Below are positions 2,334 through 3,020 of a stretch of 8,081 nucleotides of DNA, in pieces. The notes beneath the pieces are model-generated. The model did not search any database. It saw only the letters and a list, made by a program, of their open reading frames with translations, and had not been told where the DNA came from. Source of the stretch: a virus (lineage: Duplodnaviria > Heunggongvirae > Uroviricota > Caudoviricetes); the IMG/VR virus record IMGVR_UViG_2713896783_000022, one strand, 5' to 3'. A program made the translations under genes and the position numbers. Positions within the stretch are counted from its first letter, which is position 1. Each line of letters opens with the position of its first letter.

Positions 2334-2528
2334 TTACTTAATTATGTAATTCATACCCGAACGCTCTGTTGACAGCCTTCTTCTGCAGGCTTCAATAACC
2401 CACGCTGAAAAGTTACCGGAACCTTTATGTTCAAGGGCGATATTNNNNNNNNNNNNNNNNNNNNNNNNNNNNNNNNNNNNNNNNNNNNNNNNNNAGACTC
2501 CTCTGCGAGAGTGTGCGGGGATAATCAA
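2334..2528 (-). CDS. Second, divergent copy of the DUF3950 (YnfO/YlcI-like) small protein; 5' part interrupted by the assembly gap, true start unresolved (the track's start at 2528 is a TTG)
   Basis: The C-terminal part NIALEHKGSGNFSAWVIEACRRRLSTERSGMNYIIK is clearly paralogous to the 2793-3020 gene (NIALDQKGSENFSAWVIESCRREL…). The region upstream of the gap has no in-frame ATG before a stop. The gap length is a placeholder, so the gene may be intact or a pseudogene. Confidence 0.5.
   Translation of the reverse strand: MIIPAHSRRGVXXXXXXXXXXXXXXXXXNIALEHKGSGNFSAWVIEACRRRLSTERSGMNYIIK
2445..2494. other. Assembly gap (50 N)
   Basis: Run of 50 N characters. This is a scaffold placeholder of unknown true length, immediately beside repeat copy B. 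Confidence 0.97.
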
Positions 2529-2619
2529 AAACGATACACACCGGGGTTTACCGCGTAAACGGAGCGCGGCGTTCTCCCCTCATGGTCGCCCGTCCGGTGC
2601 GATGGTGGAAGAAACTGGA
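2499..2619. repeat. Copy B of the ~120 bp direct repeat (partner at 1782-1902); overlaps the 5' end and upstream region of the minus-strand DUF3950 paralog
   Basis: Same by-eye alignment as copy A. The left boundary may extend into the gap. Confidence 0.8.
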
Positions 2620-2630
2620 ATCTGTTCAAT

Positions 2631-2660
2631 AAAAAAACTGCCGTGTTGGAGTCACAGCAG
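2631..2660 (-). terminator. Putative intrinsic terminator for minus-strand transcription, about 135 bp downstream of the 2793-3020 DUF3950 gene
   Basis: On the plus strand an A7 run (2631-2637) precedes an imperfect inverted repeat CTGCCGTG (2638-2645) / CACAGCAG (2653-2660), 7 of 8 pairs with a 7-nt loop. On the minus-strand RNA this reads as a hairpin followed by U7. Confidence 0.45.
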
Positions 2661-2792
2661 TAATGTACTGATTGGGTAGAAGATTATTATTGTTATGCTT
2701 TATTTTTATTCTATATGGCTGATTATTTCAATTCGGAATTAATACAGCTAATGTCTGTGAGTTTTTATAAATTCAGCAATATAAAGAAATAG

Positions 2793-3020
2793 TTATATGA
2801 ACAGCCATCGCAGAGCATACTGTGTATCATTCTTTTTTATAGTCAACTGACGGGCATATTTTATGTCTGCTGCCAGCTCCCGGCGGCAAGATTCAATGAC
2901 CCACGCAGAAAAATTTTCTGAACCTTTCTGGTCAAGAGCGATGTTAATTTGTTCAATCATCTGGTTTGGAAATCGGATGTTGCGGGTTGTTGTTCTGCGG
3001 GGCCGGTTTTTCGATGACAT
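2793..3020 (-). CDS. DUF3950 family small protein (YnfO/YlcI-like, possible ribbon-helix-helix-type fold), 75 aa
   Basis: ATG (plus-strand CAT at 3018-3020) with AGAGGAAAG SD upstream on the minus strand. Translation MSSKNRPRRTTTRNIRFPNQMIEQINIALDQKGSENFSAWVIESCRRELAADIKYARQLTIKKNDTQYALRWLFI. The motif FPNQMIEQINIALDQKGS.NFSAWVIE.CRR matches my recollection of E. coli prophage YnfO/YlcI proteins, which sit next to the terminase genes in Qin and DLP12. From memory, not a search. Confidence 0.7.
   Translation of the reverse strand: MSSKNRPRRTTTRNIRFPNQMIEQINIALDQKGSENFSAWVIESCRRELAADIKYARQLTIKKNDTQYALRWLFI

Follow-up and report, generated by a model that had tools for sequence, protein, structure and literature searches.

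The two YlcI/YnfO (DUF3950) genes that seem to stand in tandem in the window, i.e., the whole stretch of 8,081 nucleotides analyzed here from the Caudoviricetes record IMGVR_UViG_2713896783_000022, are very probably an artefact: what the window holds is one complete, already catalogued YlcI/YnfO gene (copy A) and the tail of the gene of another prophage (copy B). This high probability covers the artefact and the known-gene part of the explanation only; the points made below on fold and function carry lower grades of their own.

A run of exactly 50 N, counted in the window at positions 2445-2494, separates the two DUF3950 stretches and is read as a scaffold gap joining two contigs. Contig 1 (1-2444, plus strand) is a segment of an Sp6-like lambdoid prophage, with an antirepressor gene (269-838), Rz/Rz1 (992-1459 and 1212-1418, respectively), two small hypothetical genes and the 3′ part of a YlcI/YnfO gene. 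Contig 2 (2495-8081, plus strand) is a segment of an Sp10-like, or BP-4795-like, prophage; it starts at its 5′-end with an intergenic repeat, here called D1, a putative terminator and a complete YlcI/YnfO gene, and it includes the genes for an HNH endonuclease (3062-3427), the small (3717-4280) and large (4277-5938) terminase subunits and a prohead protease/major capsid protein (6002-7939, plus strand). The latter, a protein of 645 amino acids, is named major capsid protein in some records and prohead protease in others, and this double naming suggests a protease-capsid fusion; in related loci, the portal gene comes after the protease/capsid gene and not before it. A candidate non-coding RNA was discarded, since an Rfam scan of the full window, with E values up to 1, returned only a chance snoRNA match at 5213-5256, which is unrelated.

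Each contig has a precise counterpart in complete genomes. In the O157:H7 genome NZ_CP133128.1, window 1-2444 is found at 285161-287604 with 99.96% identity (1 mismatch), and window 2495-8081 at 505630-511216 with 100% identity over 5587 nt (0 mismatches); these two places are 218 kb apart and belong to two different prophages, and the same split pattern is seen in CP132298 and CP136755. In the Sakai strain, the left part (1-2444) corresponds to prophage Sp6, with 99.88% identity, and the right part to prophage Sp10, where window 2495-8081 is 100% identical to 1946810-1952396, as it is to many other O157:H7 genomes. Position 2444 is the last one identical to the Sp6-type prophage, and position 2495 the first one identical to the Sp10-type. 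Thus, of the pair of tandem paralogs described in the initial annotation, the family assignment of both stretches stands, but the tandem order does not, given the 50-N gap and the 218 kb between the two halves.

The same conclusion comes from direct alignment with Sakai Sp6 (locus L001): window 1-2444 aligns with 1542-3985 at 99.9% identity and window 2886-6060 with 3926-7100, so that both “copies” fall on one gene there. Phage BP-4795 and hundreds of STEC genomes match window 2495-3060 with 100% identity, and all of them show the order Rz, one DUF3950 gene and HNH. In the Sp6-like as in the Sp10-like prophage there is a single YlcI/YnfO gene, which is flanked by the lysis cassette on one side and by the HNH-terminase genes near cos on the other, and is divergent from the HNH-terminase operon. 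As far as can be read from these alignments, the two copies represent alleles that occupy one and the same position in two separate prophages.

The source of the window is very probably a draft genome of a Shiga-toxin-type E. coli (O157:H7-like) with several near-identical lambdoid prophages, in which contig 1 represents the lysis-to-YnfO stretch of an Sp6-like prophage and contig 2 the equivalent stretch of an Sp10-like one, together with its packaging and head genes. An exact repeat of 5090 nt (2992-8081, plus strand) is common to both prophages and not assignable by the assembler to either of them; indeed, comparison of the window with the Sp6-like locus L005 gave 22 mismatches, all at 2889-2991 and none at 2992-8081. 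On the other side, the two prophages are nearly identical over window 1-1328, with 2 differing positions. Since the flanks are shared to this extent, they most likely collapsed during assembly, the two variable arms being then placed one after the other across the 50 N. The left contig ends 47 nt short of the start of the exact repeat and not at the repeat edge.

That D1 occurs two times in the window also points to an end-to-end placement of the same region from two prophages. This repeat of 125 nt occurs once per arm, at 2495-2619 (plus strand) in the Sp10-type arm and at 1778-1902 (plus strand) in the Sp6-type arm, with 94% identity between the two; in the Sp6-type arm, the similarity to the Sp10 type reaches back to 1723. 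It is also found in locus L005 at 7478-7596 (window 2495-2613) and in locus L006 at 2546-2719 (window 1723-1896). D1 appears as a conserved, G+C-rich intergenic element of 125-180 nt, located downstream of Rz in both prophage types, and in some prophages the DUF3950 reading frame extends into it. D1 was also considered as a structured RNA, which was rejected on the basis of folding z-scores from -0.62 to +1.02 on the two strands and of the lack of an Rfam match.

A true tandem would be expected to cover about 97% of window 1460-3060. This stretch of 1601 nt was compared with 5,426 complete E. coli genomes, obtaining thousands of matches, none of which covered at least 80% of it, and with 50,697 phage records, again with no match covering at least 80% of the query; the best genome matches squeeze it into about 1100 nt, with a single YlcI/YnfO gene. 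In an exact-pattern search, the junction of the window was absent from species-representative genome contigs and from IMG/VR viral contigs, and the normal Sp6-type continuation of contig 1 was found in 24 IMG/VR contigs. A real tandem, i.e., a local duplication or a product of unequal crossover carrying two DUF3950 genes on one molecule, with the gap hiding the 5′-end of copy B, is therefore very unlikely, as it has no example in the genomes and phage records searched and its junction is missing from two public collections. The orientation and the order of the two contigs are indeed those expected of such a product, the 50 N do not fix the length of the gap, and recombination between prophages is common in O157; however, up to the very edge of the N-run the two halves match separate prophages with 99.96-100% identity, and homologous recombination between shared flanks would generate one hybrid gene, not two.

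Still less probable, to the point of being nearly negligible, is that the 50 N mask 50 real bases, in which case copy B would be a 5′-truncated pseudogene fused to the D1 element. Some public stretches do carry N masking, and 50 nt are too short to accommodate the 25 missing codons, so that copy B would have to be truncated; however, the switch from the Sp6 to the Sp10 type would need to lie precisely within the 50 masked nt, and such an illegitimate junction is seen nowhere else. Moreover, none of the complete genomes searched appears to be the source of the window, as would be expected if it came from a draft assembly, in which N-runs represent gaps. A 64-aa “ORF” listed at 2334-2528 was discarded as a read-through of the N-run: the 11 residues at its start (MIIPAHSRRGV) derive from the intergenic repeat of the other prophage and have no resemblance to the DUF3950 family.

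The preferred reading, an assembly artefact, leaves two ordinary genes. Copy A (2793-3020, minus strand) is a complete Sp10-type YlcI/YnfO gene of 75 codons, whose translation is identical to WP_000095736.1 and whose start codon lies 41 nt from the start of the divergent HNH endonuclease gene. Copy B (2334-2444, minus strand) comprises the last 36 codons and the stop of an Sp6-type YlcI/YnfO gene, whose full form has 61 amino acids (WP_001302295.1). It is identical to positions 8034-8144 of locus L005, where the gene goes on to 8219 and reads MSSKNRPRRTTIRNIRFPNHMIEQINIALEHKGSGNFSAWVIEACRRRLSTERSGMNYIIK. By comparison with these loci, copy B is cut by the end of the contig and not by a mutation, and both alleles are intact in complete genomes and already catalogued. 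The alternative considered together with the initial annotation, that the second copy is a truncated pseudogene, is contradicted by the finding of the full 61-aa WP_001302295.1 intact in complete genomes. The significance of the pair in the window is small, as the proteins encoded by both genes are already catalogued in identical form; it shows, as a caution, that N-gaps in draft genomes rich in prophages can give rise to spurious tandem paralogues and pseudogenes.

Family membership, which had been proposed from the letters of the window, was confirmed by HMM searches for both stretches. Pfam PF13132 (gathering score 25 bits) matches copy A with 62.6 bits (E 3.1e-17) and the 36-aa fragment B with 56.2 bits (E 3.2e-15). 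On NCBIfam NF041551 (YlcI_YnfO_N, cut-off 30 bits), copy A scores 39.2 bits and the full Sp6-type protein 34.8 bits; fragment B alone reaches 17.4 bits because it is cut. PHROG 949 (function unknown) gives a match as well, with an E value of 2e-32. The description of a shared core followed by different C-terminal tails was likewise correct: 19 out of 24 residues are identical where both copies are readable, and none out of 12 in the tails. Also the position described for these genes, opposite to the late operon and next to packaging genes, agrees with the annotated contexts in Sp6, Sp10, BP-4795 and lambda, in all of which the gene is located between the lysis and the packaging genes, on the opposite strand. 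In the Sakai record, a plus-strand hypothetical protein of 29 amino acids, ECs_1539, is annotated over the minus-strand YlcI/YnfO site (L001 3968-4057, corresponding to NC_002695.2 1561475-1561564), and the DUF3950 gene itself appears to be unannotated in NC_002695.2.

The two stretches had been thought to be divided by a minus-strand intrinsic terminator. A terminator-like hairpin followed by a T-run is present at 2627-2661 (minus strand), 132 nt downstream of the stop codon of copy A, but it does not act as a divider of tandem genes. The consensus scan gave a stem at 2661-2637, with 9 pairs, 5 of which G-C, a 7-nt loop and the tail TTTTTTATTG, and the same hairpin is found in the minimum-free-energy fold. 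The site at 2661-2627 has the features of an intrinsic terminator, in a region that holds 4 such sites vs. 2.6 expected by chance; it is likely the terminator of copy A in its own, Sp10-type prophage. A consensus scan for the promoter of copy A on the minus strand of 3021-3590 returned no candidate.

The proposal that the copies diverged under diversifying pressure is not borne out, because the ratio of dN to dS in the core is about 0.08 at a dS of about 0.9-1.0 and the tails represent non-homologous replacements. Over codons 1-49, comparison of the Sp10 with the Sp6 type gave a dS of 1.03 and a dN of 0.088 (ratio 0.086), and comparison of the Sp10 type with lambda a dS of 0.855 and a dN of 0.064 (ratio 0.075). 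The two alleles differ at 7 residues in this stretch and the nucleotide changes are mostly synonymous; the 49-residue core is under strong purifying selection. Past residue 49 the alleles are unrelated, with 65 out of 93 nt mismatched and tails that are not alignable. Across the family, at least eight unrelated tails are found on an almost invariant core, and the tail of one member (P0109) reads into the D1 element, which fits prophage mosaic junctions located just after the core; the variable tails would then have originated from junctions falling right at this point.

As for the nature of the protein, the small DNA-binding regulator put forward in the initial annotation is a reasonable but tentative proposal, specifically as a ribbon-helix-helix type, with no fold or profile match reaching significance. 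The core pattern reads as a basic arm followed by the motif N-I-R-F-P, by a helix of 14 residues and, past K-G-S-x-N, by a second helix; the copies carry K-G-S-(E/G)-N at the turn, and divergent homologues keep I-R-F-P, N-F-S-A-W-V and a C. In the AlphaFold monomer, with a mean pLDDT of 72, residues 1-18 are modelled as a coil and residues 19-32 and 34-73 as helices; the strand can form in a dimer only. The top Foldseek matches were the TCP domain, Arc and ArtA, all DNA binders of the ribbon-helix-helix type, the best E value being 1.8 and none significant. With hhalign, residues 11-33 align on residues 8-30 of Arc in the N-x-R-aromatic-P register and with the same Pro-to-Gly spacing (E 0.031, probability 1.6%). 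Profile positions 99-145 of a HicB-like PHROG are matched by 10 out of 15 family members, with a best E value of 8e-5, and three Arc-like repressor PHROGs are matched by single members. None of the Pfam ribbon-helix-helix families was matched, and the search of solved structures by sequence gave no meaningful match, either with the single protein or with the family profile. On balance, the DUF3950 core is predicted, with modest confidence, to be a ribbon-helix-helix DNA-binding dimer: a small basic protein with a 49-residue core, in which a short strand (N-I-R-F-P), a helix, a G-S turn and a second helix would fit such an arrangement. The protein would most likely be a small, transcription-factor-like DNA binder, produced from its own leftward transcript ending at the hairpin at 2661-2627.

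The DUF3950 family is a narrow one: in a set of 1.8 billion representatives, clustering at 50% identity gives 102 clusters for it, and a second, word-indexed protein search with divergent alignment retrieved again only close E. coli relatives. In the searchable library, the literature on DUF3950, YnfO and YlcI consists of gene lists only, with no functional or experimental study, and the PADLOC defence-system models gave no match at E values up to 1. Lambda itself has an intact 64-aa DUF3950 ORF, MSTKNRTRRTTTRNIRFPNQMIEQINIALEQKGSGNFSAWVIEACRRRLTSEKRAYTSIKSDEE, at 48109-48303 (minus strand) of the reference NC_001416.1 (L008 200-394, plus strand), located 199 nt from the right cos end, in a place where the feature annotation is absent. 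In a PICI-like satellite (L009 4714-5103), a protein of 129 amino acids (P0200) is a fusion of DUF3950 with the N-terminal, DNA-binding part of a Terminase_2-type small terminase subunit; with HK97-type helper phages, it could serve as a packaging hijacker of the Rpp kind. The P0200 gene is opposite in strand to its neighbours, and the satellite also has an integrase, a small gene and a primase/AAA_25 gene. The position of the lambda ORF near cos and the satellite terminase fusion give a hint of a packaging link. In at least two lineages, distant homologues (31-33% identity; L012-L016, gene at 4001-4225 or 4001-4192) are found in non-phage chromosomal settings, with a TonB-dependent receptor gene directly upstream of them and copC/copD/yebY/holE nearby; these ordinary chromosomal settings favour a general small regulator.

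Two further groups of matches emerged from the searches. In the satellite-like “phage” vB_KppS-Ant, a clear DUF3950 match with 54% identity (E 1e-15) lies at L007 4501-4695, corresponding to LR881103.1 8991-9185, opposite to an annotated hypothetical CDS of 325 amino acids, and this CDS call may be wrong. Many lambda-type YnfO variants with scrambled tails (P0011-P0120) come from ENA contigs of about 3.5 kb, some of which bear odd organism names, such as Staphylococcus aureus and a spider; these contigs look like the 3.6-kb right-end lambda DNA that is used as nanopore control, with read errors.

A role tied to cos and terminase, with DUF3950 acting as a packaging-specificity helper or as a lysogen-expressed inhibitor of the packaging of incoming phages, is an unlikely alternative to the general regulator, although it has some basis. 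The gene always adjoins cos and terminase, together with packaging modules of both the lambda and the HNH/HK97 type and including the lambda ORF, and it is fused to Terminase_2 in one PICI-like satellite; moreover, small terminase-targeting proteins have precedents in Rpp (PMC6739421) and TerI (bioRxiv 10.1101/2025.02.27.640495). On the other hand, the distant homologues beside the TonB-dependent receptor and copC/copD are non-phage, neither homology to Rpp or TerI nor a PADLOC match was found, the fusion is represented by a single cluster, and the gene may be found at this position simply as a part of the right-end module. Slightly more doubtful still is a fuller version of this proposal, in which lambdoid phages, including lambda, would encode DUF3950 close to cos as a ribbon-helix-helix protein; expressed in lysogens from a leftward transcript, it would target cos DNA or the small terminase subunit and in this way set packaging specificity or exclude related phages, and PICI-like satellites would have captured it in fusion with a terminase DNA-binding domain. 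Apart from its role, the family represents a strongly conserved, uncharacterised small protein adjoining cos in lambda-like phages.

Among known systems, the closest are two E. coli K-12 proteins of DUF3950, NF041551 and PHROG 949, namely YlcI, from the DLP12 prophage, and YnfO, from the Qin prophage. They share with the alleles described here the same 49-residue N-terminal core, the small size, the position and the strand, and differ from them in the C-terminal tails only; both alleles match exactly proteins that STEC genomes already have in their annotation. Phage BP-4795, with its ORF52, and the Sakai prophages Sp10 and Sp6 are identical or, for Sp6, nearly identical in sequence to parts of the window, but those records hold one copy each. 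The repressors of the Arc/MetJ/CopG group, such as P22 Arc and pSK41 ArtA, resemble the DUF3950 core in its putative short strand of alternating polar and hydrophobic residues ending with aromatic-Pro, after which the predicted 14-residue helix, the G-S turn and the second helix of the core follow at the spacing of Arc; unlike them, DUF3950 has a long basic N-terminal arm and variable tails, and no significant sequence, profile or fold match links it to these repressors. Rpp, from E. coli PICIs, and TerI, from Listeria prophages, are small proteins of mobile elements that act on the small terminase subunit and have no homology to DUF3950. Rpp was considered as a possible relative and rejected, as it is a winged helix-turn-helix protein that mimics lambda TerS. 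TerI is likewise read opposite to a lytic module, and it is made in lysogens. For DUF3950, a link to terminase is hinted at by the satellite protein, in which it is fused with a small-terminase DNA-binding domain.
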